From a virus (lineage: Duplodnaviria > Caudoviricetes): a stretch of DNA of 51,816 nucleotides. The notes under the pieces are model-generated. The model was not told the DNA's origin. It worked only from the letters and a program-made list of their open reading frames with translations, and ran no database searches. Position numbers and translations under genes: made by a program. Shown piece by piece: positions 4,811 to 50,812 of the stretch (the first letter of the stretch is position 1; every line of letters starts with the position of its first letter). Where the stretch lies: IMG/VR virus record IMGVR_UViG_3300005827_000005, positions 1 to 51,816 of that record, one strand, 5' to 3'.

Positions 4811-5087
4811 TCAATCTGAATTTACCGCACACGTTTCAGGATTGCTTAGTAAATCTAGAAAAGAAGTTGAGCAGATATATTTAAATAAAGAAACCGATAT
4901 GCTTAGTGCTATTATGTCTGGTATTTTGTTGCGTGCAAGAGATGAGGCTTGTATCAATAGAATGGGATTTATTCTTGACAGATTGATCGGAAAATCTGAG
5001 ACTGTAATACCTGATAAAACAATTTTTACTGTTGAAATGTCTGATAACGGTAGATTTAAAACACTTAGACCTAGAGAAATAGCGTAG
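4764..5087 (+). CDS. Probable terminase small subunit
   Basis: Immediately upstream of TerL; helical with ILDRLIGK motif; start refined from 4749. Confidence 0.55.
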   Translation: MKPKIIKKQQTEVVFNQSEFTAHVSGLLSKSRKEVEQIYLNKETDMLSAIMSGILLRARDEACINRMGFILDRLIGKSETVIPDKTIFTVEMSDNGRFKTLRPREIA

Positions 5088-5094
5088 TGGTTTC

Positions 5095-6504
5095 ATGTCA
5101 AATGTTGTCGTTAGACTTCCTACACCACACGAAAAACAAAAAGAATTAGTTTTCTGGAAAGAAAAAAACCCGATCGCACAGGTTCTTGTTGCTCCTTGTG
5201 GTGTTAAAGTTGGTAAATCTTTTGGTTCAGCATTATGGCTTGCAATAGAAGCTATGATGTATCCTAATCTTTATTGTGTTTGGATAGCTCCCAGCTACAT
5301 GAAATCTAAAGTAGGATTTCGTTATATAAAATACATGTTACCTAATGTTAAAGGAATAAAAATAGTCGAATCACGGCTAGAAATAACATTGCCAAATGGT
5401 ACATTTATTAAATTTCTACACGGTAAAGATGCCGAGGCAACAATCGAAGGTGAGGCGGTAGATAGATTTGTTGTTGATGAAACTTCAAAACTAGAGCAAC
5501 AGCTTTGGTTTTCTTTGTTTACAACAATTTCTCAAACTGGTGGAATAGGAATCATTACAGGTTCTCCTAGGGGTTTTACGTGGTATTATGAACTATATCT
5601 AAAGGCTGTAAATGGTGACCCTTTCTTTTGTCATTTAACACTACGTTCTGTAGATTCTCCTTTTGTAAAAAGAGAAATAGTTGAACAAGCTCGAAAGATA
5701 ATGCCAAAGCATTTATTTGATCAGTATTACCTAGGTAAGTTTACATCTACATCAAGCGTATTCGGTGATATCGAAAATATGTTTGATGATCAATTAAAAT
5801 GTAATCCTGAAACAGTATTTTGGATTAATCCTGATAAAGAAAAAAGAAAAAAAGAAAGTATCACAGGATGGGATATTGCAAAGCATGTTGACTACTCGGT
5901 ATTCTACACGATTAGTTTAGACGGAGAATTAATAGGTTATTATCGTTTCAGAAAAGTAAAATATACTGATCAAGTTAAGAGATTGAAATCATATTTTGAG
6001 AAGTATTTTAATGAATCAGACAAGATGCTTAGATATGATAAAACTGGTGTCGGTAGTGCGATAGAAGATTTACTGTCAGAAGAAGATATAGATGCTTCTA
6101 TAACAGGTGTTGTTTTCTCTCAAGCCTCTAAACAAGAAATGGTTACAATTACAACCATGGCACTAGATTCCGGTTGGCACAAAGCACCACGAATTGAGCG
6201 TATTGCCCACGAATTTACAGCGTTAACAGTTAAAGTTACTAAGTCTGGATTATTTAGTTACTGCGCTCCTGATGGTGATCATGATGATGTTGTTATGGCT
6301 GCAATACTAGCAATTTCAGGTGGTTATAACATGCGAGATAGTGTTGATAATCAAGCGATAGATGAAGCGTTAGATTATGCAGAAGAAAATCAAGATTTAG
6401 AATTTTCGGAAGCAGCTAGAATTTTTTCTGGTGAAGATGATTTTGAAGATGATGAATCTTTTGAAGAAGAAGATGATGAAGTTTTTGATGATGTTTTTGA
6501 CTAA
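5095..6504 (+). CDS. terL: Terminase large subunit
   Basis: PHEKQ adenine-binding motif, GVKVGKS Walker A, FVVDE Walker B, GSP coupling motif, GWDIA/YDKTGVG/HDDVVMA nuclease motifs. Confidence 0.93.
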   Translation: MSNVVVRLPTPHEKQKELVFWKEKNPIAQVLVAPCGVKVGKSFGSALWLAIEAMMYPNLYCVWIAPSYMKSKVGFRYIKYMLPNVKGIKIVESRLEITLPNGTFIKFLHGKDAEATIEGEAVDRFVVDETSKLEQQLWFSLFTTISQTGGIGIITGSPRGFTWYYELYLKAVNGDPFFCHLTLRSVDSPFVKREIVEQARKIMPKHLFDQYYLGKFTSTSSVFGDIENMFDDQLKCNPETVFWINPDKEKRKKESITGWDIAKHVDYSVFYTISLDGELIGYYRFRKVKYTDQVKRLKSYFEKYFNESDKMLRYDKTGVGSAIEDLLSEEDIDASITGVVFSQASKQEMVTITTMALDSGWHKAPRIERIAHEFTALTVKVTKSGLFSYCAPDGDHDDVVMAAILAISGGYNMRDSVDNQAIDEALDYAEENQDLEFSEAARIFSGEDDFEDDESFEEEDDEVFDDVFD

Positions 6505-22400: not shown

Positions 22401-22538
22401 AAAATAGAAATAAATGCAAAAACTAATTTAGATGCTGACGGAATAAGAAGGGAAGTTATTCCAGCAATTGAAAAACATTTGTTAAAAAAATCTCAAGAAG
22501 GTCAAAGGATTATCGATCCAAAAGGAGTTAGAATATAA
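16404..22538 (+). CDS. Tail tape measure protein
   Basis: 2044 aa, helical; LP and W/F periodic repeats; C-terminal FANGG...GTDTVPAMLTQGEYVV motif. Confidence 0.93.
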   Translation: MAVSKTMDFNINLEAKNNMSNSLDAISQSISDLIEVYDKSIQSIKQAVKEYISNKEAIKSTKEAYESTYKAIHKFDESVLQSSTSIQKFSNQMNFSISGIGNFTKLITNLVIELDRLTKPETLKRTSDLFAIFAAMTKLRGFDQLSSGIYKVSLAINSLSKKSSDLRSSLTGDFGDTSLKARMYMGDTSASVEYLKNSIVDLSGTMVSATKSVFDYAKSFIQVTTNITMTAQALNTLVTPENAKNISNIFAVLSAGSEIKGFDNVSKQLMMISDSSRNASIQLQDMKDKQESLTSRLEQAANASRLYVSAISMLKTIGIAAVIGTATGFLYRFAKTTEYGNNLINNWISSFNIYVDIFKTFSKTLYETSPAISKLMIMLVELSSGFSLLGNYLSSSDDKFTQFIGNIFRNSALTGFAIGAVLNITLRTIGDGLASIGKMLDESMTKFEEKFTKSQNVMSQFQFVINGLTRDLGEATTGGLEMWNKKLVEMQDTTKFATVDIAKSMKMIISEGARFGLTTEQISNLITKSGDIASSYSMDVVDSANMITNALAGQTQSFVNLGISVNDAANAHSDLFLMMGKSSDKLTKQEQALVKYDLIMKETSSIIGAATNELNTIAGATAKYERAVVNVQVKMGTMAFIAENLIAAKTKLFEILNKLPNSFYIVAGSVQDLLSFFLPVIGVVIKFGTYILAATTVMKLFNAYAASTVISNTALGRSILFVANSLNVQTIAMTGSKELLINLGNILKGAMSLSLVAFTALLNQAKLALISFSKVIWSTTIAVLSNPLFWKVAIIVGSIIAVIEAMKQLYEQVDFVREGIDNLKKEFIGLFSSLDKNVSSLSSISNIFMELTQNILGITKIIVGGFVAGIYSLSSAYSFLRGVLSTDEKEQEEWNNKAEDARDKIIQLSKFMSKASDEVTLLGGKTAYAATQMSVADKNAKKYSDTLEKLVSFQMKDFNEESERLKITGNEFKQALEKQEEAIRNLTKARQENLEIEDKAKGIAEAQKELIKANMEVEKLSNDTIKKIREDSLKARIEELKKSEKVVESIKLENKEKLRLFDEQINNLKTLGSLTKKQQDDINEARKNIVNSGLAEVESEQNKKALEDYNKIKNSKENLLESIKKENLDQISSIEGVRELRLKEIEDNRKILRDKGILNNERKKELDLVESLVNKNSDLEKNKALLEQQKASTEILVENKKMIIDMNKDQLAKIDIIDVENQLLLDQIDIKMLDNKLSVESMRLLQQQKDLIKQKGEKDKSLITIDEVISRRVDIIVGKNDLNKEMYKSALEFSMQISDAINIGSRKGFSEISSYILDAAKFAYNIFDKTFITPIKDLYEGLSTGETNFTGIKDSIKLGSEIFLNNQLTVVEKIGLAFTSGTSLISSTLQTAGAALNAVLTGKPLDFMASILETINNLPENLMKILDRFDSVISSLLDKFPQMVTKLIQRLPEVFKKLFDALPKIVDNIAKSLPILVKTIVDMLPEMIKKVGAELPKLLSAIFDGIIAIIDRLPDIIDSLLEALPKFIEMFFQKLPELFRSIFRAIPKIIVSILENLPDILESLISGIIGAVGEIVTAFVDEFLLKGGLEKIIVGIIKAVPRIAVALVHGILTGLLRGIKSFGNLFGGKIKLPEEITNLPEKISEGAKKLGTDIGKSVSQVFSVKDLNENAKNLDIGEKMSSAINGAITNFSNATQNSMNLFINGLKAAWQWVLDNIWNPIFNSIKTVWLWVYDNVLKPIWDGLLGIWQWVNDSVITPMIIAIQSVWQWVNDKVITPVVSALTTLWTWVKEKILDPIVSAFQSTFQFIGDKVFNPIVKAFDTIFTFLGEKVLAPMVKTLGSIFDPLTKAFNSLGKIFEPITKAFNSLGKIFEPITKVFSDLGKSLESITKPFDQLSKSLSSFSGGGISNITGGGGGGNTVTNAISSVGKSLGFANGGLVYAAEGQYINFKPRGTDTVPAMLTQGEYVVKRDAVKSLGLSTMNSINSGVLPSSGSSIVIQKIEINAKTNLDADGIRREVIPAIEKHLLKKSQEGQRIIDPKGVRI
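21927..22052 (+). repeat. 3 x 42-bp tandem repeat inside the tape measure gene
   Basis: ATATTTGAACCAATAACAAAAGCATTTAA(C/T)AGTTTAGGAAAA-like units at 21927, 21969, 22011. Confidence 0.9.
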
Positions 22539-36411: not shown

Positions 36412-37851
36412 ATGTCAGAAGTAGCATTAGTTGAACGTCAAAAGAAGGAATTAGAATCTATTGTAAATACAGTAGTCATGCAACAACCGAGCTTGAAAGA
36501 TAAGCTGACAGTTCCAATAATTTGGAATTACATGCAAATGCCTGATTCTACATTTGGTTGGAATGCTGGCGGTGAAATGCCAAAGCACATGAAAGTTGCA
36601 TTAGTCGCTGCACATTTACAACATGGTGCTCAATTAGGATTTGGTCACATTTATTACTTAGGTAATAAAATGTATCAATCGGCTGAATTCGTAAGATCAA
36701 AAGCGGCAAATGATCCCGAATGGAAAGTTGTAGGAAACCCTACATTTAAACCTCATACTGTTGAAGAAAGATTAATGTACGGTTTAACTGAAGGTGATAT
36801 GTCATGTAAAGTTGAATGTGAAGTCGAGTACAAAGGAAAGAAGTTCTTAGCAAGTGGTGATGGTTTTATAGGTAAAGACGAGATAAATTATCGTTCAAGC
36901 GGTGGTAAGTCAAAAGCTGGAATGGATACAATTAAAAATAGAGCGATGACTTTAAAGACTCGAGCGATGAGAGATTTATACAATAGATACTATCCAACTC
37001 AAGGACTGCCGGTAGCACCAGAACACGGTGAAGATACGCCTGAATATCAAGATGCTCAATATGTTGAGCAAGTCAAGATTGTAAACGAAACATCAACAGA
37101 AGAAGCAAGAAGTGAGTATAGAGAAAAAATAAAATCAACTCAAGAAGATTCTGCGAAAAAAGAAGAAAAGAAAAAACTTCTCGAATTATTAGAGAAGATA
37201 AAAGAAGCTGCTAAAGCAAATGGTGTATCAAGCAAAGATTTGTGGGCTAGTGTTAATTGCAAAACACAAGCTGAATTCACAGCAATGCCTAACGAAACGA
37301 TAGCTGATTCGCTTGAAATAATGTCAGAATTTATTACTACAAAAGCAAAACCTGACACATTTGATGCTGAAGTTGTAACGGAGCAAAAAGAAATAAAAAA
37401 AGAAAAACCGAGTGAAGATAAAAAGCTATTAACAGCTGCATTGAAAATGTACGAAACGACAATAGGTAGCGTTCAAGGGATGGGTGGTTTACCTATGAAA
37501 ATTCTAGGTTTTAATCATATGAATGTTTTTGATTGGGATGATGTAAAAGCTATCCAAACTGAAACTAAAAGACTTGAAAAATGGATTGGCGAAAAAGTAA
37601 GAGAGTTAGCAGAAAAAGACCCATTTTCTGAAACTGTACTATCGATTGAACAAGATGAAGTTTCACTAAAGCAATTAAAAGCATTGCTTGAAAATCCTAA
37701 ATTGACAGATGATGGCGTTAAGATAAGATTACAATCACTATTAAAATGTAAATTAGTAGCTGGTGATCATGAATTAATTTTGAATGCAGCTAGGGTTGGT
37801 CAAATAGATAAAAATTATTCAGGTTTAGATAAGTTGATTAGCAGAAAGTAA
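36412..37851 (+). CDS. RecT/Red-beta-like single-strand annealing protein with long C-terminal extension
   Basis: G..HIYY...KMY...A and MTLKTRAMRDLY...YP motifs; gp157/SSB context. Confidence 0.6.
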   Translation: MSEVALVERQKKELESIVNTVVMQQPSLKDKLTVPIIWNYMQMPDSTFGWNAGGEMPKHMKVALVAAHLQHGAQLGFGHIYYLGNKMYQSAEFVRSKAANDPEWKVVGNPTFKPHTVEERLMYGLTEGDMSCKVECEVEYKGKKFLASGDGFIGKDEINYRSSGGKSKAGMDTIKNRAMTLKTRAMRDLYNRYYPTQGLPVAPEHGEDTPEYQDAQYVEQVKIVNETSTEEARSEYREKIKSTQEDSAKKEEKKKLLELLEKIKEAAKANGVSSKDLWASVNCKTQAEFTAMPNETIADSLEIMSEFITTKAKPDTFDAEVVTEQKEIKKEKPSEDKKLLTAALKMYETTIGSVQGMGGLPMKILGFNHMNVFDWDDVKAIQTETKRLEKWIGEKVRELAEKDPFSETVLSIEQDEVSLKQLKALLENPKLTDDGVKIRLQSLLKCKLVAGDHELILNAARVGQIDKNYSGLDKLISRK

Positions 37852-37858
37852 ATAATTT

Positions 37859-37884
37859 AGCCTAGAGTAATCTAGGCTTTTTTT
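37859..37884 (+). terminator. Rho-independent terminator between convergent genes
   Basis: AGCCTAGA/TCTAGGCT stem followed by a T run. Confidence 0.8.
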
Positions 37885-38086
37885 ATACTTTTTTTGGTGT
37901 ATTGTAATTTTTAATAAAACTATCTGCTTCTGATTTTAATACAAAATACTTATCTCGATAAATAATAGATGATTTAAATTTTGTTTTTGTTTTAATCCAA
38001 TAATGCACATTATTGATTGATACCCCTGTTTTTTCTGCTATTTCCTTCACATTATAATATTCATTTTCATCGAATGTTTTGCTCAT
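37883..38086 (-). CDS. Excisionase/MerR-like HTH protein
   Basis: YYNVKEIAEKTGVSINNVHYWIK. Confidence 0.75.
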   Translation of the reverse strand: MSKTFDENEYYNVKEIAEKTGVSINNVHYWIKTKTKFKSSIIYRDKYFVLKSEADSFIKNYNTPKKV

Positions 38087-38138
38087 TTAAAAACCTTTTT
38101 AAAATTCTAATTAATTTAGATATACAATAGTTTATTGT

Positions 38139-38169
38139 TGTTTACAAGCATTAGTTTGTTTGTTATATT
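38139..38169 (+). promoter_or_regulatory. Putative promoter for the helicase operon
   Basis: TTTACA-17 bp-TATATT with extended -10 TG. Confidence 0.5.
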
Positions 38170-38200
38170 TTGTAGAATTTAAAGCGGTGAAAATAATAAA

Positions 38201-39736
38201 ATGAGTAGTAATAAACCTAGACCATATCAAGAAAAAGCATTAACTCAAATAAGAAATGAATTTGAGAAAGGCAATAAAAAAGTGTTGCTACATATGAGTA
38301 CAGGTGGAGGTAAAACTTTAACTTTCTGCTGTATTTTAGCTGGTATTCAAAAGAAAAATAAAAAAGGAATAGTAGTTGTTAAAGGTAGAGATTTAGTTGA
38401 AAATGCAAGCAATAGATTAACTAGAGAAAATGTTAATCACGGTGTTTTAATGTCCGGACATTGGAAAAATTTACCGCATGAAAATATACAAGTTTGTAGT
38501 GTTGATACCTTATTTTCTCGTAAATTAATACCTGATGCTGATATTCTAATTATAGATGAAGCACAAGACGCTACAAGTAATAAGTACAAATGGCTAATCG
38601 AACAATATAAAGATAAATATATTCTTGGTGTTTCTGCTACACCACATGTTAAAACAGGTTTAAAACATATAGCAGATGTTGTTGTTAGGCCTATCACAAT
38701 AAACGAATTGATCGAACAAGGTTATCTAGTCAGACCTAGATATTATGCTCCGAGTAAAATTAATCTTAGTGGAATTTCTATAGATAAAAAAACAGGTGAT
38801 TATAAAATTGATGAGCTTGAAAAGGTTATGGATGACGTAAAAATCTATGGTGACTTGGTAGAGAATTATCGTAGGTATGCTTTTGGTAGAAAAGCAATTG
38901 TTTTTTGTGTTTCAATAGCTCATTCAAAAAGTGTTTGCGAGTATTTAAACAGTAACGGTATTAGGGCTGCACATGTTGACGCTAGTAGCTCAAGATCAGA
39001 TAGAGATATGGTTATTAAGCAAATAGAAAACGATGAAATAGATGTTGTTTGCAATGTGAATTTATTTTCTGTTGGCGTAGATATCCCTATTATCAGCTGC
39101 ATTATTCACGCTAGACCAACTAAAAGTTACAATTTTTGGATACAATCAAATGGACGTGCGACTAGACCTTTTGCAAATAAAAATGATTTTATTGTTTTAG
39201 ATCATGTCGGTAATATTTCAGAACATGGATTAATAGAAGATGAGCGAGAATGTTTACTGGAAGGCTGGAAACAAGACATACAAGTTGAATCAGTGACTAA
39301 CTGTGAAAGATGTTTTTCAGCATTTTCACCGAGAGAAAATTATTCATCTGTTATAAAATTTATTTTCGATAGCAATGAAAAAGAGTTTATAGAATTTTAC
39401 AATTCAAAAGATGTAAATATTAAGTATGGAGATAGAGCGTTTAGAAGTAAAAGATTATATTTTTGCTTGGAGTGTGGTTACAATAATACTCAGATAAATG
39501 AAGCAAAAGAACAAAATACTGAAGTCGGTGAAGATAAATTAAAAGAGATTTCGGAACATGATAAGTTGATGATAAAAGCAAAAACAAGACATAAAGAATT
39601 AAAGAAAATTAAAAAAGCAAAAGGATATAAAAGAGGTTGGATTAAACATATAATGGTAGCAGAGTTTGGAGTTGATATTGCAAATTTATTTGTAAATAAA
39701 ATAAAGTTACCAAAACATTTAGAGAGGTTTTTGTGA
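38201..39736 (+). CDS. SF2 (DEAD/DEAH-like) helicase with C-terminal Zn finger
   Basis: RPYQ, TGGGKT, DEAQ, SAT, GVDIP, QSNGRATR; CERC...CLEC. Confidence 0.92.
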   Translation: MSSNKPRPYQEKALTQIRNEFEKGNKKVLLHMSTGGGKTLTFCCILAGIQKKNKKGIVVVKGRDLVENASNRLTRENVNHGVLMSGHWKNLPHENIQVCSVDTLFSRKLIPDADILIIDEAQDATSNKYKWLIEQYKDKYILGVSATPHVKTGLKHIADVVVRPITINELIEQGYLVRPRYYAPSKINLSGISIDKKTGDYKIDELEKVMDDVKIYGDLVENYRRYAFGRKAIVFCVSIAHSKSVCEYLNSNGIRAAHVDASSSRSDRDMVIKQIENDEIDVVCNVNLFSVGVDIPIISCIIHARPTKSYNFWIQSNGRATRPFANKNDFIVLDHVGNISEHGLIEDERECLLEGWKQDIQVESVTNCERCFSAFSPRENYSSVIKFIFDSNEKEFIEFYNSKDVNIKYGDRAFRSKRLYFCLECGYNNTQINEAKEQNTEVGEDKLKEISEHDKLMIKAKTRHKELKKIKKAKGYKRGWIKHIMVAEFGVDIANLFVNKIKLPKHLERFL

Positions 39737-39889
39737 ATAATAAAAGTAAAATAGAATTAAAAGATTTACTTGAATTAGAGCGGATATCAAAAAGAACTCC
39801 AAGATTTGGATTTAATATTTTGATAATTTTCTTTTTTATGTCAATTTGCATTGTTTTATATAATATGTTTTTTTGATAAGGAATAAATT

Positions 39890-40528
39890 ATGCTGGAAGT
39901 AAAAGGTAAATTCATTGAACCACATTTTGTTAGTGAAGTTGGAATGATTGGGTTGACGTGCGTAGATATAGCTAGAGCTCTAGAAATAGACTTAAGAGAT
40001 TTACATAAAAAAATTAAAAGAGACACATGGACTAAAGATGAATCATGGAAACCAATTTCATATATTGTTAATAAAAATATTAAATCGGGGGCATATGTCC
40101 CAATGAAAAGAGAATCTTATTTTTTCTTTTCAATTCAAGGTGCTAAGGCGTTTGTAGCAAAATATAACAATAATGTTGGTGACTCTTATTTGAAGTTTCT
40201 TTTTGATTGTGAAGAAGCAGCTTTACATAAAATTCCACAGTTACAAAACATAATCAATCAATTATTAAACAAGAAAAAAGTTAAACATAAAAGAGGGTTG
40301 ATTGTAACAACTAAAGCAATAATCAGAAAAGGTTTGTTTGAACCAATTGTAGAAATAATAAAAGAAAAAGTGCTATTAGATGAATTGAGCTATGCTGAAC
40401 GTGAACAATGGGCTTTTCAACATAGATCATTAATAGCAGAAGGTTTAATGAGAAAGAATAATGAAAAAATTAGAGATTCAAAGATAATACCAATATCAAC
40501 ATCAACAATAAAAAAGAAAGATAAATAA
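39890..40528 (+). CDS. AntA-like antirepressor / DNA-binding protein
   Basis: DIARALE...YFFFSIQGAK...VGDSYLKFLFDCE resembles AntA/AntB. Confidence 0.6.
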   Translation: MLEVKGKFIEPHFVSEVGMIGLTCVDIARALEIDLRDLHKKIKRDTWTKDESWKPISYIVNKNIKSGAYVPMKRESYFFFSIQGAKAFVAKYNNNVGDSYLKFLFDCEEAALHKIPQLQNIINQLLNKKKVKHKRGLIVTTKAIIRKGLFEPIVEIIKEKVLLDELSYAEREQWAFQHRSLIAEGLMRKNNEKIRDSKIIPISTSTIKKKDK

Positions 40529-40728
40529 TGAGTAACCAAACTATACTTGCGATTATCATTAAGATTTGTGGAATAAGTGAAGTTGAAATGAAAAATAATA
40601 TGTTCGAGCAAGAAGAAAAATCTAGATGTTTTGCTATTGCTAATGTATGTGCGATAAATTATAGAGAGGCATTAGAATTTGAATCATGCTTAATTGAGAT
40701 AAAAAAGAACTCGGAGAAAAAGAAATGA
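40528..40728 (+). CDS. Hypothetical protein
   Basis: TAATG overlap. Confidence 0.6.
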   Translation: MSNQTILAIIIKICGISEVEMKNNMFEQEEKSRCFAIANVCAINYREALEFESCLIEIKKNSEKKK

Positions 40729-41180
40729 TTGATAGAGTATGCATTTGTATTTTAACTTTTTTGATTTGCTTTGTAATTATAATGACAATTAAATATTATG
40801 AAGAGTACAAGGTGTTAAAATTTAAATATGATAATTTGAAAGAATATGAAAAATATTTACAAGATAATATACGTAATTTAGAAGTAAATTTAACTAAAAC
40901 TCATTGTGAAAAAAGAGAACTAAATAAATTAATTGATGATTTAAAAAATACGTTTAATTCAGATGATATTAAGCTTAAAATTTTAGAATTAAAATCATTA
41001 GGAACAATGTCAAATGAATTGTGGTACAAGCCAAAGTTTTTTAAATTTAAAGATATTAGTGAAATTCATGAAGGAAAAATATATTATCCTTCAAAAAGAT
41101 TTTTTCATCAAAAAAATAATAATGCTATAGTAATTGGTGATAGTTGGGACAGTATGTATTTTCCAGTAAAGGATTTATAA
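40725..41180 (+). CDS. Membrane-anchored coiled-coil protein
   Basis: N-terminal TM segment and coiled coil; GGAG RBS. Confidence 0.7.
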   Translation: MIDRVCICILTFLICFVIIMTIKYYEEYKVLKFKYDNLKEYEKYLQDNIRNLEVNLTKTHCEKRELNKLIDDLKNTFNSDDIKLKILELKSLGTMSNELWYKPKFFKFKDISEIHEGKIYYPSKRFFHQKNNNAIVIGDSWDSMYFPVKDL

Positions 41181-41181
41181 A

Positions 41182-41976
41182 ATGGGATTTGTTAGCAGTT
41201 TATTTAGATTAATAAAGTCGATTTTTGGTTTGGCTGAAGGCGGAACAGATAGAGCAACAAAGAATCTTATCACGGCTTCTCCTGATATGATTAGAAATCA
41301 GTTTCAGAAAACAAGAAACGATTGGATTAAAGACTATGAAGAAATGAAAGAAGCTATTGCAGAATTGAAAGTTATAGCTAATCAAAAGAACGATGAATTA
41401 ATCGAGCTTGAAAAGAAGCAAATCAAGTATGAACAATTGATGATTGGAGCTATTGAGCAATTTAAAAAAACACAAGATGAAAATTTAAAAACTAAATATG
41501 CTCAATATGCAGAAATAAAAGAAGCTGTAGATAAAGAAATTTTAGAAACGAAAGAATTAATAGTTTCTCAAGAAAAATTAATAGACAGCTACACATTAAA
41601 ATTAAATGAATTAAAGGTAAACATAGATAATTTAAAGCAAGAAGAGGCTAAAACTATAGCTGAAATAACATCAAGTAGAAAAATTCAAAGTATTAACAAT
41701 AAACTTCAGGGATTAACTACTGATACTCAATCAAGAAATCTAGATGCAATCAGAGAAGAAGCAAAAAAAGCAAAAGCTATATCACAAATTTCTAGTAAAA
41801 TTTCTGGTGATGATGATAATGAGCAAGAAAAAATATTGCTAACATCTGCTAAAAGTTCTAAGTTTCTAGATGAATTTAATAAAGCAACAGCATTTGACGC
41901 TATATTTGTTGAAGAACCAAAAAAAATAAGCAGCGTTTCAAGTTCAGGCGATAAAATAGATAGTCTATTTTCGTAA
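41182..41976 (+). CDS. PspA/IM30/Vipp1 (ESCRT-III superfamily) protein
   Basis: Amphipathic MGFVSSLFRLIKSIFG, SPD hinge (cf. EDP), long helical hairpin. Confidence 0.75.
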   Translation: MGFVSSLFRLIKSIFGLAEGGTDRATKNLITASPDMIRNQFQKTRNDWIKDYEEMKEAIAELKVIANQKNDELIELEKKQIKYEQLMIGAIEQFKKTQDENLKTKYAQYAEIKEAVDKEILETKELIVSQEKLIDSYTLKLNELKVNIDNLKQEEAKTIAEITSSRKIQSINNKLQGLTTDTQSRNLDAIREEAKKAKAISQISSKISGDDDNEQEKILLTSAKSSKFLDEFNKATAFDAIFVEEPKKISSVSSSGDKIDSLFS

Positions 41977-41995
41977 ATATTAGGAGATTTTTAAA

Positions 41996-42601
41996 ATGAA
42001 TACAGAGGATTTAATGAAAAGAAATTATGTGTTATTAATTGACAAATCAGGAAGCATGAGCACCGTTGAAAACGGTAAATCACGTTGGGAAACTGCAAAA
42101 GAATCTACATTTGCTTTAGCCAGAAAATGTAGTGAGTTTGATCAAGATGGTATCGATGTATTTTTCTTTAATAGTAGTTTTAAAGAATACAACAACGTAA
42201 CTGCTGAAAAAGCACAAGACTTATTTAACCATGAAGAACCTATGGGTGGTACTGATTTTGTTCCAGTTCTTAAAAAGGCTTTTGAAAATCATTTCAAACA
42301 AAATGATAAACCAACAACTATCCTTGTTATTACTGATGGTGAACCTAGTGATGGTTTAACGGCTCAAAAAGCTACTGCTAAATTGATTGTTGAAACTTCA
42401 AACAAACTTGAAGCAGATGGTGATTTAAGTATTTCTTTCTTACAAGTTGGTAGTGATCCAGCAGCGGAAAAATTCTTGAAAACTCTTGATGATGATTTAC
42501 AAAAAGCTGGTGCTAAGTTTGATATCGTAGACACTAAGACATTTAAAGAATTAGAAAACATGTCTATTGTTGATGTTTTAATTGCATCTATTAACGACTA
42601 A
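41996..42601 (+). CDS. Stand-alone von Willebrand factor A (vWA) domain protein
   Basis: MIDAS DKSGS, GGT, ITDGEP, FLQVG. Confidence 0.9.
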   Translation: MNTEDLMKRNYVLLIDKSGSMSTVENGKSRWETAKESTFALARKCSEFDQDGIDVFFFNSSFKEYNNVTAEKAQDLFNHEEPMGGTDFVPVLKKAFENHFKQNDKPTTILVITDGEPSDGLTAQKATAKLIVETSNKLEADGDLSISFLQVGSDPAAEKFLKTLDDDLQKAGAKFDIVDTKTFKELENMSIVDVLIASIND

Positions 42602-42609
42602 ATTTTTTT

Positions 42610-42634
42610 AGCAGCCTTAATTGGCTGCTTTTTT
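42610..42634 (+). terminator. Rho-independent terminator
   Basis: AGCAGCC/GGCTGCT stem followed by a T run. Confidence 0.8.
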
Positions 42635-42646
42635 ATTGAGGTTATA

Positions 42647-42844
42647 TTGTCTGTTAAAATAAATAAAAATGATTATTATAACGCTATAAATTTATACTTA
42701 TGTTTTTGTGAACATTGTAGCAAGTTTGTAAAAGTTATTAGAATGAAAAAGTATAAGAATGCAATATGCTGTACTGAATGTGAATCTGATTTAGTGCATA
42801 TGCCAGAACTGGCAAAAATAAAAAAAATAATTGAGGTTATCTAG
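42647..42844 (+). CDS. Small Zn-ribbon protein
   Basis: CEHC...CTEC; GAGG RBS. Confidence 0.6.
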   Translation: MSVKINKNDYYNAINLYLCFCEHCSKFVKVIRMKKYKNAICCTECESDLVHMPELAKIKKIIEVI

Positions 42845-43023
42845 TGTCTGAAGAAAATAAAATAATTAGGTCTACTTTATTAATTCTCTTAGCTCGTATT
42901 CAAACAATCGAAGAAATAGTAATTGAACATGGCGGTGAACTAATAAAAAAAGAACTATCTGATAAATTCAATAGTAAATTAAAAGATTTGAAATTAGATA
43001 TTGGAAAGGATGTAAATGAATGA
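42844..43023 (+). CDS. Hypothetical protein (59 aa, not in ORF track)
   Basis: GAGG RBS, GTG start, fills the gap between neighbours. Confidence 0.5.
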   Translation: MSEENKIIRSTLLILLARIQTIEEIVIEHGGELIKKELSDKFNSKLKDLKLDIGKDVNE

Positions 43024-43204
43024 ACTAGTAGAAGAACTAAAGCTATTACTTACATTGAATACAGTTTTAATATTTATTTTATGCGGAATTATTATATTTT
43101 TAAATTACTCATATGATAAAAAATTAAAAATAGAAAAAGAACAAAACTACATTCTTAGAAATAAAATAAAACAATCAACACAATATATCACCTTGGAAAT
43201 ATGA
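43016..43204 (+). CDS. Small membrane protein
   Basis: One TM segment. Confidence 0.6.
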   Translation: MNELVEELKLLLTLNTVLIFILCGIIIFLNYSYDKKLKIEKEQNYILRNKIKQSTQYITLEI

Positions 43205-43297
43205 AGCGGATGGGGAATATATAAAATGCGCTGGTTGTGGGTTGATTGAATCTCAAGAATGGTGGCAAGATAAAGATTTGGAAAGGAATAATAAATA

Positions 43298-43582
43298 ATG
43301 TGGGAATATTACTATTATTTATCAAAAGAAACGATAGATGCATTTTATTTACTAGCAGTAGTCTGTTTCATGATATCTATTTTTATTTTTATATGTTTTT
43401 ATTCAGATAGGGAAAAAATAAATGATAAGGAAAAAATGGATATTATAATAATTATAAAAGTTATTGTTTTTATGTTTATATTATTTTTTTGTTTAGCTAC
43501 AATTTTACCGAGAAAACAGTTTGCAAAAAATAAAGCATGTGAAATAGAAAAAGTTGAATATTTATGTGAGGAGAAAGAATGA
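43298..43582 (+). CDS. Two-TM membrane protein
   Basis: Two hydrophobic segments; AAGGA RBS. Confidence 0.7.
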   Translation: MWEYYYYLSKETIDAFYLLAVVCFMISIFIFICFYSDREKINDKEKMDIIIIIKVIVFMFILFFCLATILPRKQFAKNKACEIEKVEYLCEEKE

Positions 43583-43857
43583 AAAAAATCTATAAAAAAG
43601 AACTAGAAGCTGCAAATATTATTTTAGAGTTGCCGCTTTTTTCAGAAATATTAGTAGCTCAAGAGCAAGATGGTTCAACTTTTATTTGGTACGAATTTGA
43701 TGAAGCATTTGAACAACAGTTATCAAAAGTTGAATTCTACATTCAAATTACGGGTTTTGGTATTGAAAGATCAGATAATTCAAAATATTTAAATTCAGTA
43801 TTTTTTAAGAATGGGTTTGTAGCTCATGTATATTATGAACGTAAATTAAAGGAGTGA
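43579..43857 (+). CDS. Conserved phage hypothetical protein
   Basis: KIYK...LP..SEIL..QEQ...IW...TG...YL....VAHVY pattern of a widespread phage family. Confidence 0.7.
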   Translation: MKKIYKKELEAANIILELPLFSEILVAQEQDGSTFIWYEFDEAFEQQLSKVEFYIQITGFGIERSDNSKYLNSVFFKNGFVAHVYYERKLKE

Positions 43858-43859
43858 TT

Positions 43860-44162
43860 ATGTTGAATAGAGAACACGCTAAACAAGCTATAGAGTATTT
43901 AAACGAACTTTTATTGTTAGATCATGATGCTATACAGAAATTGTTAATTGATAAAAGTGTAGCAGTGAATAGAGAAATTGCTAACCATCCTACAGCACAA
44001 GTTAGAACAGAAGATTTAGATTTAATTTTTCTATCTGTTCTTGGTTTGATAAATGGTATGTTCGGTATAGTCGGTGGTGATGGTAAACGAAGGAATTATG
44101 GGAATATTTCAGCCGTGCTTGAAGATGGTAAGATAGTTAGATTTCAAATAACTGAGGAGTGA
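43860..44162 (+). CDS. Hypothetical protein
   Basis: GGAG RBS; flanked by a 14-bp direct repeat; start refined from 43854. Confidence 0.7.
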   Translation: MLNREHAKQAIEYLNELLLLDHDAIQKLLIDKSVAVNREIANHPTAQVRTEDLDLIFLSVLGLINGMFGIVGGDGKRRNYGNISAVLEDGKIVRFQITEE

Positions 44163-44164
44163 TT

Positions 44165-44569
44165 ATGTTAGAATTTTTAGAAAATGTTAAAGATATTTTA
44201 GGCGAAAAAGTAATTGTAATGGATGAGTTAAGGGAGAAGTTTCCCGATAAATTTAATGAATCCGGTTCAATGGATTACAAATGGTTTAAAAAGGATATAA
44301 GACCTAATAATTTTATTTATGTTAGAAAAGATGTAAATTCAATTTCATTTACATTACAAAAAGGCGCAATAAAAGAAGTCGGTAAAAATGGTTGTGATGT
44401 GGCTTGTTTAATTGCAGCCGCTGGTGAGATGATTCAAAATGCTAATGAAAAATACCCATGTGACGAGAACGAAAAAGCTATTGAGCATTTAGAACAAGCT
44501 TTGCGATGGTTACGTGAAAGAACTAAAAATAGAGAACAGCGTGGCGTTGAAGGTACAAGTAATGTCTAA
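44165..44569 (+). CDS. tad1: Tad1-family (Thoeris anti-defence) nucleotide-sponge homolog
   Basis: LQKG..KE...NG...ENEKAIEHLEQALRWLRERTKNREQRGVEGT matches the recalled Tad1 pattern FQKG...REN..A.T..EEALMW..R...R..R.V.GT; start refined from 44159. Confidence 0.75.
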   Translation: MLEFLENVKDILGEKVIVMDELREKFPDKFNESGSMDYKWFKKDIRPNNFIYVRKDVNSISFTLQKGAIKEVGKNGCDVACLIAAAGEMIQNANEKYPCDENEKAIEHLEQALRWLRERTKNREQRGVEGTSNV

Positions 44570-44712
44570 TGGTGATGATGTAGATTTACAACAAGTTTAT
44601 GTGACTGGTATATATAAATCTATTGAATCTGTTAAACCTTGGAGTTTTCATTAAATTAATATCAAGGTTATAGATGCTACTATGACCTTGAAGTCATCAT
44701 TGGGTTGTTTGA

Positions 44713-45288
44713 ATGGTTGATGAAGAAAAATTATTTAAAATTTTAATCAGTGAATATATTCATAAAGATAAGTTTATTTTAACACATGGTAATAAAATAG
44801 GAAAAACTTTTTTGCAAAAATCATTCAAAGATAGGATAGAAAGCAATGAATATTTTAAATTGATAGGAGAAACAAAAATGAATACAGAATTTAATTTAAC
44901 GATAGGCCAAGCGATTGATTTGATGCAAGATGGTTATCCAGTGTGTAATGAGAAGAATCCTAAAATTAAATATTTTATGATAAATTCAATTATTAAGGCA
45001 CAAGATAATACTTATAGTGCTGAAGGAATAGCGTATGTCTCACTTGATTTTATTGAACGTAATTTAGGTTATTTTTTCAAAGAATATACCGATCCGAAAG
45101 AAGTAAAAATGATTACGTGGTATATACCTACTATTATTTGGCATAAGAACGCTTGGTTTCCACTATACGATGGTTCAAAATGTTATAAAAACAAAGATGA
45201 ATTTTTTACTGAATACTCTAAGAAAGAAATAAAAGTTCTTGAATGGAAAGAAATTCAAGCACCTGAAACTTGGGAGCAATGCGAATAA
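44713..45288 (+). CDS. Protein with Tad2/DUF2829-like N-terminal motif (likely internal start at 44878)
   Basis: AGGAG RBS before ATG 44878; LTIGQAIDLMQDG. Confidence 0.55.
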   Translation: MVDEEKLFKILISEYIHKDKFILTHGNKIGKTFLQKSFKDRIESNEYFKLIGETKMNTEFNLTIGQAIDLMQDGYPVCNEKNPKIKYFMINSIIKAQDNTYSAEGIAYVSLDFIERNLGYFFKEYTDPKEVKMITWYIPTIIWHKNAWFPLYDGSKCYKNKDEFFTEYSKKEIKVLEWKEIQAPETWEQCE

Positions 45289-45296
45289 GGATTAAG

Positions 45297-45458
45297 ATGA
45301 TGATGAAAGAAGATTGGTTAGGTTACGGTATTTTGATTGGTCTCTGTTTAGGATTAAATAAAAATGAGTCAATAATATATATAACAATAACACTAGCGAT
45401 AAATACAATAATCTATTCATTGATATTATATGGCTATAATAAACTAAGAAAAAGATAA
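45297..45458 (+). CDS. Small two-TM membrane protein
   Basis: AAGGA RBS; hydrophobic; start refined from 45270. Confidence 0.55.
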   Translation: MMMKEDWLGYGILIGLCLGLNKNESIIYITITLAINTIIYSLILYGYNKLRKR

Positions 45459-45473
45459 CTTTAAGGATTGTGA

Positions 45474-45674
45474 ATGAATGAATACGAAAAAGAACAAGAA
45501 TGGAAAAAGAAAGTAAATTTAAAAGAGTGTAATTGTTGTGAAACTTGCAAATACAGTACACCTATTGATGATCGAGAATCTATCTGTGAATTTGAAATAG
45601 AAATACATTATGTTTCTGATTTAAGTGTTTGCGATAATTTTTATAAGGATGAGGAAATAAATGAGCGAATTTAA
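45474..45674 (+). CDS. Small Cys-rich protein, copy 1
   Basis: CNCCETC...C...VCD; duplicated at 46129. Confidence 0.7.
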   Translation: MNEYEKEQEWKKKVNLKECNCCETCKYSTPIDDRESICEFEIEIHYVSDLSVCDNFYKDEEINERI

Positions 45675-45894
45675 TTTGACGATAGGCCAAGCGATTGATT
45701 TGATGATGCAAGGTAAACGAATGGTTTCAAATAACCACTCGGAGCACTTCTATTCTATGATAATAGACTTTCATCATGTACTTTTTACGGTAGATAATTT
45801 AGGAGGTGGTGGTGTTAGAACAGACTTAAACGTTGATTTTAAATCAATGTGGAGAGAATTTACTCCACCTGAAACTTTGGAGCAATGCGAATGA
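45661..45894 (+). CDS. Tad2/DUF2829-like small protein, paralog 2
   Basis: LTIGQAIDLMMQGKRMV resembles the F.EAL..LK.GK.V.R motif. Confidence 0.55.
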   Translation: MSEFNLTIGQAIDLMMQGKRMVSNNHSEHFYSMIIDFHHVLFTVDNLGGGGVRTDLNVDFKSMWREFTPPETLEQCE

Positions 45895-46118
45895 GTAATA
45901 TTATAGAAGATTCAGTTAAAATAGAAGCTATAAATAAAGTTACTGAATGTATACATGAGGCGAGAAAAATAGCTGTTAACTTCGATATCGATTTTGCTTG
46001 TATCGTTTTACTAGACGAAAAACGTGTATTAAATACGACAAACGGTGATTCTCTTAAAATACTAGGTCTTATTGATATTTTGAAAGATAGAATAATAAAC
46101 GAAACATTAACAAAATAG
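45891..46118 (+). CDS. Hypothetical protein
   Basis: ATGA overlap; start refined from 45885. Confidence 0.65.
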   Translation: MSNIIEDSVKIEAINKVTECIHEARKIAVNFDIDFACIVLLDEKRVLNTTNGDSLKILGLIDILKDRIINETLTK

Positions 46119-46128
46119 AGTTTATTAA

Positions 46129-46323
46129 ATGAATGAATACGAAAAAGAAAAAGAATGGAAAAAGAAAGTTAATTTAAAAGAGTGTAATTGTTGTGAGACT
46201 TGTAAATACAGTACGCCTATCGATGATCGAGAATCTATCTGTAAATTTGAAACAGAAATACATTATGTTTCCGATATAGTATTTGTGATAATTTTGATAA
46301 GGATGAAGATTACAGATGAGTGA
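46129..46323 (+). CDS. Small Cys-rich protein, copy 2 (1-nt deletion alters the C-terminus)
   Basis: Near-identical to 45474-45674 for the first 49 codons. Confidence 0.6.
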   Translation: MNEYEKEKEWKKKVNLKECNCCETCKYSTPIDDRESICKFETEIHYVSDIVFVIILIRMKITDE

Positions 46324-46774
46324 AGCAATTGAATTTAAAAAATGCAGCGTGTGTGAAGGTGAATTGAAAGATTATTTCTGGCATTTCACAACTAGTCAAT
46401 ACATGGTTGGAAAGTACCCAACAAAACAATTACAAGGTTATCATGGTCAAACACTTTGTCAAGAGTGTAACGAAGCGGCGTTAAATGCTTTGTATGATAG
46501 ATATCCAAACAAAGTTATACCAGACTTTTATTGTCCTAAGTGTAGTTATCTGCATTCAGACATTAAAATTAAAAGAGATGAAGAATTTTTAGAAATGATG
46601 TGCTTTGATTCTGTATGTGGTACATATCTGAAGGTTTATAAAAATGGTGATATTTCTAGATATGTTAATTTCGAGTGTAATGATTGTAGTCGTAAAGTTA
46701 CAAATCATTTTTACGGAATTGGCGGTAAAATAATTTGTCCCAAATGCTATAAGGAAAGAAATGAAAATACTTAA
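46316..46774 (+). CDS. Multi-Zn-finger protein
   Basis: Six CxxC-type pairs. Confidence 0.7.
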   Translation: MSEAIEFKKCSVCEGELKDYFWHFTTSQYMVGKYPTKQLQGYHGQTLCQECNEAALNALYDRYPNKVIPDFYCPKCSYLHSDIKIKRDEEFLEMMCFDSVCGTYLKVYKNGDISRYVNFECNDCSRKVTNHFYGIGGKIICPKCYKERNENT

Positions 46775-48241: not shown

Positions 48242-50812
48242 ATGTCAATTTTAGATATAAAAGAATTTTGCCACAATAACGATTTCACAGATATTCCTAC
48301 CGATTTAATCCTTGACGGAAACGTACACAGATTTGGAGAGAAAAAAAGACGCTGGTACGTTGGAAAAATAATACACAATGAAAAAGGTAAATCATTATAT
48401 GTTTTTTCGTGTGGTGATTGGCGTGAAGGAAAAATTTTAAAATTCCAACCAAAACATCCTTTAAGTAATTCAGACAAAAAAACATTTAATATTCACCTTG
48501 ACGAACTTTTTGAAAAAAAAAGAAAACAAGAAGCATTAAATCGAATCGAAGCACAGAAAAACGCAAAGAAACTTCTGGATACTGCTATTCCTGATATCTC
48601 AAATTTTCCTTATGTCGTAAGAAAAAAAATAAAAGGAACTTATAACGTATTTTTAATAAACGATATATTTAGTAGTTATATCGCTATCCCGATGTACAAA
48701 GACGATAACTTAGTTGGGCTACAAAGAATCTATGAAGATGGTTCAAAAAAACTTCTTTTTGGTCAAGAGGTAAAAGAAACTTATCATGTTATTGGAAACA
48801 TCACAGAAAATACAGAAGTGTTTTATATGGCTGAAGGTTTCTCAACCGCTGCTAGTATTTATCAAGCGACAAACACGCCTGTAGTTATATGTTTTTTTGC
48901 TAACAATATGTCTACAGTTACAAAGATATTTAGATTAAAGTACCCAAAAGCAAAAATAGTTATTTGTGGTGATGATGATTTTGAGACAAAAGAACGTGCT
49001 GGAAACAAAGCAGCAGAAGAGGCATCAAAAATAACATGTACTGCTCCTATTTTCCCTGTGTTTCAGGATAGAAAAACAAAACAAACTGACTTTAATGATC
49101 TTCATATCGCTGAAGGCCTAGAGGTAATCGCACAACAATTATCACACACTGAAATAGTAGATCAAGGTTTCACAATCCTTGGCGGTTCTAAAAACGGATA
49201 TTATTATTTTATCAACAACTATTCTCGAATGATTATTAGAACATCTTCTTTTAAAATAGAGGAACTTCTAAAAATTGCTAATCTAGATTATTGGGATAGT
49301 ATCTATTCTGACGGAAAGCAAACAGACTGGCAACGCGCTAAGTCTGACCTTATTGAAAAAAGCAACCTGATACCTTACTACAATATTTCCAGACAGCGTG
49401 GAACAGGTGTTTGGCAAGATGAAAATCGGTTTATAATGAATACAGGAAAGTATCTTTTTATTGACGGTGTAAGGGTTTCTCTTTCAAATGTGAAATCAAA
49501 ATATATCTACATCAAATCAGATACTCATATTAACGATGATATACTTGATCTAAAGCTAAAGAATACAGACAGAGAACTGATTCAAAATGTAGTGGATTTG
49601 CTTTCTTTTAAATATGAACATTCAAAATATTTTCTCCTTGGTTGGCTTGCGCTTGCACGAGTGTGTGGTGCGCTTCCAGTTAGACCTAACATTTGGGTTA
49701 CTGGTGGTAGGGGGACTGGTAAATCAACTATCCTTGAAAACTTTTGCCAACCGCTTCTTGGGGATTTTTCTAGCTACAAAAAAATGACTGGCTCCGGAAC
49801 AACCGAAGCTGGTCTTAGATGTTCTGTTGATAGCGATGCAATCCCTGTCATTATAGATGAATTTGAAGTTGAAAACTCTGATTCATTTAAAAAAAACAAC
49901 AATGTGCTGCAAATGATTCGACAAGCTTACTCGGGTGACGGTGGTAAGATCACTAAAGGTACTCAGCAAGGTGGTGTAATTGAGTACAGGTTGATATTTA
50001 GTGTGCTGCTATCATCTATTAGAGTTTCTCTTGAAAACGATTCTGACAAATCTAGATTTACGGTAATTGATTTAGAAAAACCAAACGATTCAAAACAATG
50101 GCAAGACCTTAAAAAAATAATATACAAGATTAAACAAGATGCTGGTGAGCGTTTATTTAGTCACATGTTTAATCACTTGCCAGAAGTCATGAAAAGCTTT
50201 GATATTTTGCAACCTTTGATTGCAGAAATAGCAGACCAACGCTTTGGTCAACAACAAGGCATGTTGCTGGCTGGTTATCATGTAATGATGTGCGGAAAAG
50301 CAATAACAAAAGAAGAGGCTGAAAATCTTCTGAACAAACTTAAATTTAACGAACTAAAAGAAGAAAAAGACACAGATGAAATACCAGATGAATACGAGTT
50401 ACTTGATACTATTCTCACAAGCCTAATAACTCTAAACATCGCTGGCTACTACTCGGAGAATAGAGTTACCATGACTATCAGTGAGTTTATTAATATGCCA
50501 GAAGCTATTGCACCGCTTAAATCATATGGTATTTACTACTCAAAAGAAAAAGGAAAGGTCTACATATCAAACACTCATACAGGTATAAAAGACATTCTAA
50601 AAGGTACAAAATGGGCTTCTAATTGGAAGAAATCTCTTATTAGACTTTCTCGTAATGGAAAATATGAACGTGTTAGATTCGGTTCTTACGCTGTTCATAA
50701 TGCTGTAGGAATAGATTATGCTACAATATTTTCAGTAAACATGCCTGAACCAGAACCGATTAAGAAGAAAACAAAATACGAAGAAATAGATAATGAACCT
50801 TTACCTTTTTAA
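48242..50812 (+). CDS. TOPRIM primase fused to a P-loop (SF3-like) helicase
   Basis: DG.VHRF N-terminus, LQRI, AEGFSTA, CGDDD, TDFNDL; GGRGTGKS Walker A, IIDE Walker B. Confidence 0.9.
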   Translation: MSILDIKEFCHNNDFTDIPTDLILDGNVHRFGEKKRRWYVGKIIHNEKGKSLYVFSCGDWREGKILKFQPKHPLSNSDKKTFNIHLDELFEKKRKQEALNRIEAQKNAKKLLDTAIPDISNFPYVVRKKIKGTYNVFLINDIFSSYIAIPMYKDDNLVGLQRIYEDGSKKLLFGQEVKETYHVIGNITENTEVFYMAEGFSTAASIYQATNTPVVICFFANNMSTVTKIFRLKYPKAKIVICGDDDFETKERAGNKAAEEASKITCTAPIFPVFQDRKTKQTDFNDLHIAEGLEVIAQQLSHTEIVDQGFTILGGSKNGYYYFINNYSRMIIRTSSFKIEELLKIANLDYWDSIYSDGKQTDWQRAKSDLIEKSNLIPYYNISRQRGTGVWQDENRFIMNTGKYLFIDGVRVSLSNVKSKYIYIKSDTHINDDILDLKLKNTDRELIQNVVDLLSFKYEHSKYFLLGWLALARVCGALPVRPNIWVTGGRGTGKSTILENFCQPLLGDFSSYKKMTGSGTTEAGLRCSVDSDAIPVIIDEFEVENSDSFKKNNNVLQMIRQAYSGDGGKITKGTQQGGVIEYRLIFSVLLSSIRVSLENDSDKSRFTVIDLEKPNDSKQWQDLKKIIYKIKQDAGERLFSHMFNHLPEVMKSFDILQPLIAEIADQRFGQQQGMLLAGYHVMMCGKAITKEEAENLLNKLKFNELKEEKDTDEIPDEYELLDTILTSLITLNIAGYYSENRVTMTISEFINMPEAIAPLKSYGIYYSKEKGKVYISNTHTGIKDILKGTKWASNWKKSLIRLSRNGKYERVRFGSYAVHNAVGIDYATIFSVNMPEPEPIKKKTKYEEIDNEPLPF

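Follow-up and report, generated by a model that had tools for sequence, protein, structure and literature searches.

The bacterial PspA, Vipp1 (IM30) and LiaH systems, treated by Liu and co-workers in 2021, reportedly belong to PF04012 and, with it, to the ESCRT-III superfamily. In ESCRT-III proteins, C-terminal MIM tails recruit Vps4 through MIT domains. The accessible part of one account (PMC7619361) likewise has ESCRT-III C-terminal regions recruiting Vps4, describes bacteria as being without a Vps4-like regulator, and leaves as an open question how PspA/Vipp1 is switched in bacteria that lack PspF or such an ATPase. Phages also encode PspA: the available portion of a preprint by Yuan & Chen (bioRxiv October 2026, 10.64898/2026.10.24.761521) reports 189 pspA genes in 184 huge phages, together with 667 IMG/VR genomes, and TerD and VWA-domain proteins commonly encoded in huge phages between PspA and a Ca2+ P-type ATPase; for IMG/VR, it retained PF04012 matches at E ≤ 1e-5 only. 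Here, we describe a locus in a tailed-phage genome of 51,816 bp (IMG/VR record IMGVR_UViG_3300005827_000005, the whole of which is referred to as the window), in which a gene for a 264-amino acid (aa) PspA/IM30-like protein (41182-41976, + strand) is followed by one for a 201-aa protein with a von Willebrand factor A (vWA) domain (41996-42601, + strand). Comparison of related loci supports the two as a conserved linked gene pair. Moreover, the C-terminal tail of the PspA-like protein co-varies with the presence of the vWA gene, an observation that is new here.

We assign the 264-aa protein to the PspA/IM30-ESCRT-III superfamily, as a divergent member, because of its sequence profiles; the predicted fold is consistent with this. 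A word-indexed search yielded six close relatives among 1837 candidates, and an exhaustive HMMER search with the resulting seven-sequence profile gave 382 cluster representatives at E ≤ 1e-3, of which 210 reach ≤ 1e-10 and 20 reach ≤ 1e-30. A larger alignment of 107 sequences was assembled from the window protein and 106 of 150 listed rows, all collected at E ≤ 1e-13 with the profile of the window protein itself (the remaining 44 rows, picked by eye, were omitted for short or partial profile coverage). Within it, 25 members individually match PF04012 (PspA_IM30; best E = 3.4e-7), against five for the next most frequent family. The profile of all 107 aligns colinearly with Nostoc Vipp1 (6zvr_B; E = 5.9e-13, profile positions 39-257 with chain residues 30-235), and seven more Vipp1/PspA sequences rank ahead of any other protein in the same Protein Data Bank (PDB) list. 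Additionally, the nearest clusters in the protein atlas are named PspA/IM30 family, at 0.94 with 212 shared features.

AlphaFold models of the protein have a pLDDT (predicted local distance difference test) of 71.2 when built from seven sequences and of 79.5, with a predicted template modelling score (pTM) of 0.63, when built from 107. The better model is nearly all-helical: helices at residues 3-17 and 19-30 are followed by a hairpin (34-97 and 101-176) and two further helices (187-200 and 221-242), after which the tail is unstructured. This order fits the α1-α2/3 hairpin of ESCRT-III, then α4 and α5, with a disordered linker and tail. Among the ten best Foldseek matches, at probability 1.00, Vipp1/PspA account for all ten with the first model and nine with the second. 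An earlier interpretation made from the letters alone (hereafter the sequence-only reading) had described a PspA/ESCRT-III-like protein with a long coiled-coil hairpin, and both descriptions are borne out. The N-terminal helix (residues 2-17; 41185-41232, + strand) corresponds to a conserved block, GFxSSxFRLIxSIFGLAEG, and would be the equivalent of α0; by eye, hydrophobic residues alternate with basic or polar ones, and it is predicted to be a membrane-binding element, albeit with a pLDDT below 50 in the first model.

Set against this assignment are several results that would suit a mere generic coiled coil with no kinship to PspA. As a single sequence, the protein matches no Pfam, PHROG, NCBIfam or PADLOC family; the seven-sequence profile reaches Vipp1 chains in the PDB only at a non-significant E = 0.5-1.1; and no Foldseek match attains E ≤ 1e-3, the best values being 2.1e-3 and 2.8e-3. 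In VIA-align, Vipp1 (Z 12.0, root mean square deviation 4.9, 156 residues aligned) and Escherichia coli PspA (Z 11.8, 2.3, 122 aligned) score level with the coiled coils of SMC and the dynein stalk (Z 12.1-12.7), and therefore the fold taken alone is that of a generic hairpin. Nevertheless, the Vipp1 profile match is full-length and colinear and lies far above those to other coiled coils in the list, and no other family approaches the number of PF04012 matches among the 107 members, so that we regard an unrelated coiled coil as scarcely credible. Pattern searches of viral contigs and genome contigs, and a tblastn search of INPHARED, found no relatives of the protein.

With the bacterial PspA, Vipp1 and LiaH proteins, then, the window protein has in common the predicted N-terminal helix, the α1-α2/3 hairpin, α4, α5 and a variable C-terminal extension, a likeness at the level of family homology. 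The partner is different. Neither PspF/B/C, LiaI/F, Toastrack nor Band-7 families were found by Pfam in the eight proteins encoded between 36412 and 42844, nor classical Psp or Lia/Ydj partner families in the ten encoded between 42844 and 46774; in this locus, the partner is a vWA domain. In two large surveys of Psp systems (PMC11237479 and PMC9239133), the words vWA, Willebrand and TerD do not occur.

The 201-aa protein exceeds three Pfam gathering thresholds: VWA_2 (40.9 bits against 27; E = 3.4e-10), vWA-TerF-like (34.7 against 29.4; E = 2.6e-8) and VWA (31.5 against 23.8; E = 2.5e-7), with a weaker match to Copine (E = 1.1e-4) and one to phrog_5359 (E = 1.5e-18). It consists of a single stand-alone vWA domain, for which vWA-TerF-like is the best specific subfamily, and thereby resembles the vWA-TerF-like, TerY and copine A-domain proteins (PF10138, PF07002). 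An alignment of 35 homologs shows no variation at five residues (D16, S18, S20, T86 and D114); given what is generally known of the vWA fold, we take D16-x-S18-x-S20, T86 and D114 to be the positions of the metal ion-dependent adhesion site (MIDAS), the DxSxS element of which (D16-K-S-G-S20) is encoded at 42041-42055 (+ strand). The stand-alone vWA protein with an intact MIDAS put forward by the sequence-only reading is thus upheld. No Ter system partner (TerD, PP2C or kinase) was detected by Pfam among the scanned window neighbours (36412-46774), and the PADLOC match of the vWA protein to TerY is marginal (E = 0.0046, covering the 32 residues 103-134). Since no signal peptide or hydrophobic segment can be read in its sequence, the protein is probably cytoplasmic.

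The pairing of the two genes recurs elsewhere, on related contigs of phage-like character and in a few bacteria, which supports the treatment of the two as a module in the sequence-only reading. At a metagenomic locus (L002), a 311-aa PspA-like protein (678-1613) is followed, 16 bp apart, by a 204-aa vWA homolog (1629-2243). Among 131 genomes of the phylum to which an Oligoflexia metagenome-assembled genome belongs, a search found 14 places in 12 genomes: in three (L103, L104 and L105) the vWA gene lies directly downstream, and in the other 11 (L089 and L093-L102) it is not present within 1.5 kb. The pair is also seen in diverged form at L009, where 15 bp separate the end of a 263-aa coiled-coil gene from the vWA gene; the product of the former aligns weakly, albeit colinearly, with the PspA-like family (hhalign E = 3.8e-4, 36% probability) and gives a BLASTP E of 0.023 (residues 85-262 against 84-263). 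The diverged PspA-like proteins of L009 and of a further paired locus, L106, have no Pfam match. Four of the six close homologs of the window protein (P0001, P0003, P0004 and P0005) stand on contigs of 19507, 3495, 2384 and 31016 bp, and four vWA homologs (P0156, P0157, P0159 and P0170) on contigs of exactly these sizes. At L003, L004 and L005, no vWA gene is present; the neighbours at the latter two, judged by eye from translations, are fmt-, ScpB-, SpoU- and crotonase-like genes.

By the same comparison, the module of the sequence-only reading is not phage-specific. Two of the paired loci (L106 and L108) lie in an ordinary bacterial chromosome context, with genes for a solute-binding protein, a hydrolase, a GntR regulator and an ABC ATPase, and for DUF1552/DUF1592 and GDPD proteins, so that cells as well as viruses carry the PspA-like/vWA cassette. 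In the diverged, vWA-linked PspA-like genes of L106 (9212-10117) and L009 (1510-2400), a strongly hydrophobic, transmembrane (TM)-like N-terminus replaces the putative amphipathic helix, and this feature of the bacterial forms points to the membrane. A separate observation concerns L003, where an open reading frame (ORF) that appears SPFH/Band-7-like by eye (5049-5924) lies 2 kb downstream of a PspA-like member that has neither the vWA gene nor the tail motif described below.

Alignment and locus comparison drew attention to the C-terminus of the PspA-like protein, where residues I259-D-S-L-F-S264 (41956-41973, + strand) form a [DEN]xLF motif that we propose as the docking site for the vWA partner. 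F263 is invariant in the seven-sequence alignment. The pattern [DEN]xLF with 0-2 further residues ends all six vWA-adjacent family members (IDSLFS in both the window and L103, LDDLF in L002, NDLFS in L104, NNLFS in L105 and VDQLFK in L009); it is lacking in each of the 14 members that have no vWA gene beside them (L003, L004, L005, L089 and L093-L102), which finish in forms such as …VDAELANLKSGIN. The background rate is about 0.1-0.3%: for viral vWA genes, none of 62 upstream neighbours has such a tail and 3 of 2251 other ORFs do, and for bacterial ones it is found in 1 of 76 upstream neighbours (the one being L009) and 3 of 1071 ORFs. By eye from the alignment, the strict pattern is satisfied by 11 of the 20 closest members. 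A maximum-likelihood tree of 44 rows groups the members without vWA into a single clade (96/94) and places the window protein in a separate clade of five (100/100), all with tails of the [DEN]xLF type; in it, L002, where vWA gene and tail are both present, is the sister of L003, where neither is (100/99).

Taking these results together, we favour with modest confidence the explanation that the two genes are a cassette for the upkeep of the host membrane during phage replication, in which the vWA protein is a tail-docking partner of the PspA-like protein. By homology to PspA and Vipp1, the PspA-like protein would bind the host inner membrane via its N-terminal helix and, as they do, polymerise through the hairpin and α5. 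The MIDAS of the cytoplasmic vWA protein would dock on the acidic-hydrophobic C-terminal tail (…IDSLFS) and, once docked, the vWA protein may, depending on cations, recruit the polymer, cap it or switch it; we infer such control of assembly because of the adjacency of the genes and the co-variation of the tail. Expressed by the phage from its early/accessory arm, the pair would maintain a sealed, energised host membrane for the duration of phage replication. The arrangement resembles ESCRT-III MIM tails and Vps4 by analogy only, both having a short C-terminal motif after a flexible linker and a dedicated soluble partner; here, a metal-dependent vWA adaptor takes the place of the AAA+ ATPase, and its binding is a proposal. 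Full-text searches of the literature returned no description of an interaction between a PspA tail and a vWA protein. A complex prediction for the vWA protein, Mg and tail residues 196-264 gave a score of 0.01 and a mark of 0.32, which speaks neither for nor against docking.

A number of points weigh against this explanation. With respect to the tail, the sequences compared are related, such that there are about two independent contrasts; the pattern was defined after the tails had been seen; and P0004, the vWA context of which is inferred, ends in …DNIFDD and thus fails the strict pattern. With respect to linkage, the adjacency of vWA to four of the six close homologs is read from equal contig sizes only, and the flanks examined at L089 and L093-L102 extend to 1.5 kb only. 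Furthermore, in a hidden Markov model search at E ≤ 1e-3, a PspA-like neighbour was found at none of 80 bacterial and none of 63 viral vWA loci (weak rows in the latter gave 0.0035 and 0.021), and 65 Streptomyces phage records carry a vWA homolog, at about 31-34% identity, without one. Since most of its relatives have no such neighbour, the vWA protein does not need a PspA-like partner, and the two genes might simply be adjacent and functionally independent, the vWA protein having a different target in host or phage and the PspA-like gene being a passenger derived from the host. Such independence would, however, have to accommodate the recurrence of gene order and tight spacing down to about 20% identity (L009, L104 and L105), and a tail motif that tracks the presence of vWA; we judge it distinctly unlikely.

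The vWA family itself is large. At E ≤ 1e-10, 3706 homolog clusters were obtained among 3857 candidates, many at 50-60% identity; Silvanigrella aquatica and a number of filamentous cyanobacteria are among the named records. In the Streptomyces phages Coruscant (L007) and Yaboi (L008), a vWA homolog of roughly 265 aa stands alone inside tRNA gene arrays, and in Yaboi a gene for a Band-7-like membrane protein lies 2.6 kb upstream of it. Across the 80 bacterial loci, vWA genes often occur in tandems of two to four; the cyanobacterial loci among L010-L088 (e.g. L032, 4306-6107, and L027, 4191-7323) combine two to four tandem vWA paralogs with a conserved small protein. A small protein with one to three repeats of the motif IDxLLA[EQ]x[KQ] is encoded near vWA in 53 of the 80 loci: 48 of the 53 contain at least one copy of the motif and 28 two or more, as compared with 0 of 2710 background ORFs. 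The cyanobacterial IDxLL-repeat protein has no Pfam family. Because the tail of the PspA-like protein and the repeats of the small protein have an I-D-x-L-hydrophobic core in common, we suggest that the vWA family may read motifs of this kind.

An extension of this suggestion would make the stand-alone vWA-TerF-like proteins cation-gated 'tail readers' for ESCRT-III-type polymers and for other carriers of I-D-x-L-hydrophobic motifs: ion influx at a lesion would load the MIDAS, the vWA domain would grip the tail, and the polymer would be switched on where the damage is. We think this unlikely. If true, it would supply a bacterial and phage counterpart of the recruitment of ESCRT-III by MIM/MIT or by Ca2+-ALG-2, and the phage might in this way survive membrane-targeting abortive infection or restrain CBASS, the antiphage signalling system based on cyclic oligonucleotides. 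What can be said in any event is that a large, uncharacterized vWA family, with many members in phages and multicellular cyanobacteria, has recurrent neighbours with I-D-x-L-hydrophobic motifs.

Our preferred explanation, tail docking in a membrane-upkeep cassette, may be compared with the phage modules in the available portion of the preprint by Yuan & Chen. In both cases, a PspA-family protein stands beside membrane- or cation-related genes with VWA neighbours, and in both a stabilization of the host membrane is proposed. The differences are that the 264-aa protein fails their PF04012 criterion of E ≤ 1e-5; that their VWA proteins, in phages mostly over 200 kb, are accompanied by TerD and the ATPase, whereas a 52-kb phage has here a bare two-gene cassette with neither TerD nor ATPase among the scanned neighbours; and that the present tail motif is linked to vWA. 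The sequence-only reading knew of no characterized phage PspA-vWA system. As regards experiments, this stands; however, the same portion of the preprint (10.64898/2026.10.24.761521) already reports phage PspA, sometimes with VWA neighbours. Such phage PspA is therefore already known as a kind, and a subfamily missed by PF04012, in a mid-sized phage, extends the range of phage-encoded PspA. The compact two-gene cassette also provides a candidate regulator of a PspA-type polymer, one in which a particular tail accompanies a MIDAS-vWA partner. Two other systems were considered as relatives and rejected: the Bac/YjfI-YjfJ cluster of Pseudomonas, the paper on which has no vWA, and the vWA systems that Kaur et al. 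2020 describe, in a paper that mentions neither PspA nor this vWA family.

The organization of the locus suggests a single transcription unit. Three ORFs were found on the + strand where the sequence-only reading had placed them, the PspA-like and vWA genes being preceded by a gene for a 151-aa TM-like and coiled-coil-like protein (40725-41180). The latter ends in a TAA stop at 41180 and the ATG of the PspA-like gene begins at 41182, leaving a gap of 1 nt; that between the PspA-like and vWA genes is 19 nt (41977-41995). Both gaps agree with those claimed, and Shine-Dalgarno-like sites are present at 41169-41173 (AAGGA) and 41982-41986 (AGGAG). The TM gene is probably co-transcribed and translationally coupled with the PspA-like gene. 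Because its ATG (40725) overlaps the stop of an upstream ORF (40528-40728; ATGA), the transcription unit probably starts further upstream, and it probably ends at 42610-42637 (+ strand), where the anticipated terminator after the vWA gene appears as an intrinsic terminator-like hairpin (42610-42629; a 7-bp stem with five GC pairs and a loop of six) followed by a T-run, TTTTTTATT. It is the sole terminator-like site within 39600-43100. Shuffled sequence gives 0.7 such sites on average, and the terminator is credible from its place right after the vWA stop, not from the site count.

The 151-aa protein starts, as read from its translation, with an unbroken hydrophobic stretch (VCICILTFLICFVIIMTI) and continues with charged, heptad-like sequence. 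The sequence-only reading had allowed for it as a possible third member of the module, an idea that we rejected: a word-indexed search of a database of 5.8 billion proteins returned one homolog besides itself (65% identity), located on the same 19,507-bp contig as the closest PspA-like and vWA relatives, and at none of L002, L106 and L108 does the gene precede the pair. It is lineage-specific and, although it may be a local accessory, does not belong to the conserved cassette. No Pfam or PHROG family matches the protein, and its protein atlas scores are below 0.9 with no informative neighbour.

The virus record is complete (CheckV completeness 100%), and the window contains tailed-phage genes, namely, those for the large terminase, portal, tape measure, a Gam-like protein, helicase and primase; no tRNA genes were found in it. 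INPHARED holds no close relative of the phage, the structural arm being without a megablast match. The sequencing runs listed for the record comprise no RNA run and two DNA runs from one study, with small shares (0.10 and 0.09), and are uninformative on expression or habitat. The PspA-like/vWA locus lies in the + strand early/replication arm, bounded on its 5' side by the helicase gene (38201-39736) and on its 3' side by the primase gene (48242-50812), and is surrounded by many small accessory ORFs. Within this run, ~1.5 kb downstream of the pair, a 136-aa ORF (44159-44569, + strand) encodes a homolog of Tad1 (Thoeris anti-defense 1), as the sequence-only reading had recognized: residues 61-135 match 8kbb_A at E = 2.9e-10, phrog_2428 is matched at 7.6e-22, and five more Tad1 chains are found at E = 6e-4 to 9e-4 (four of them so named; 7uav_A is deposited under a different name).

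The position of the Tad1 homolog, among small accessory genes between helicase and primase, lends some weight to a role of the cassette in counter-defence, whereby the PspA-like polymer would reseal membranes attacked in abortive infection, or extra PspA would keep the cyclase of type II CBASS conjugated and inactive, the vWA protein serving as regulator. The available part of one study is also in keeping with this: host PspA is the protein to which Cap2 conjugates the CBASS cyclase, and when PspA is lost the cyclase is activated earlier (Krueger et al. 2024, PMC11153139). The effect of PspA on CBASS reported there is, however, subtle and was obtained with Bacillus; one anti-defence gene nearby counts for little where the phage arm is gene-dense; PADLOC gave no noteworthy match; and the same pair stands among housekeeping-type genes on bacterial chromosomes. 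On balance, we see counter-defence as rather unlikely. Alternatively, the polymer might buffer membrane lesions made by holin-type proteins or by incoming phage, and so serve lysis timing or superinfection exclusion. PspA-type proteins counter proton leakage, according to the portion of the preprint cited above (10.64898/2026.10.24.761521), and the pair is probably transcribed with the small membrane protein of 40725-41180, with small hydrophobic ORFs nearby (43016-43204 and 43298-43582). Nonetheless, the pair is away from the lysis and structural genes (the sole endolysin-like match seen falls within the tape-measure gene, 16404-22538, although no search for holin or lysis genes was made), and no holin linkage was seen in those related loci whose neighbours were inspected; we hold this alternative to be quite improbable.

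Some further features of the window are recorded here. In the tape-measure protein (2044 aa, + strand), it is the C-terminal third that also matches the endolysin family phrog_971 (E = 1.2e-19). Just past the terminator, a small Cys-rich ORF (42647-42844, + strand) shows a weak match to a DksA-like zinc-finger PHROG (0.0063), and the ORF at 43579-43857 (+ strand) encodes a DUF7352 protein (Pfam, 4.6e-12). Two + strand ORFs beyond the Tad1 homolog, 44713-45288 (191 aa) and 45661-45894 (77 aa), have no Pfam match at E ≤ 0.01. They have in common the block 'FNLTIGQAIDLM', which is internal in the first (residues 59-70) and N-terminal in the second, and both also end C-terminally in 'E(T)(W/L)EQCE'; as judged from these shared blocks, they are probably paralogs.

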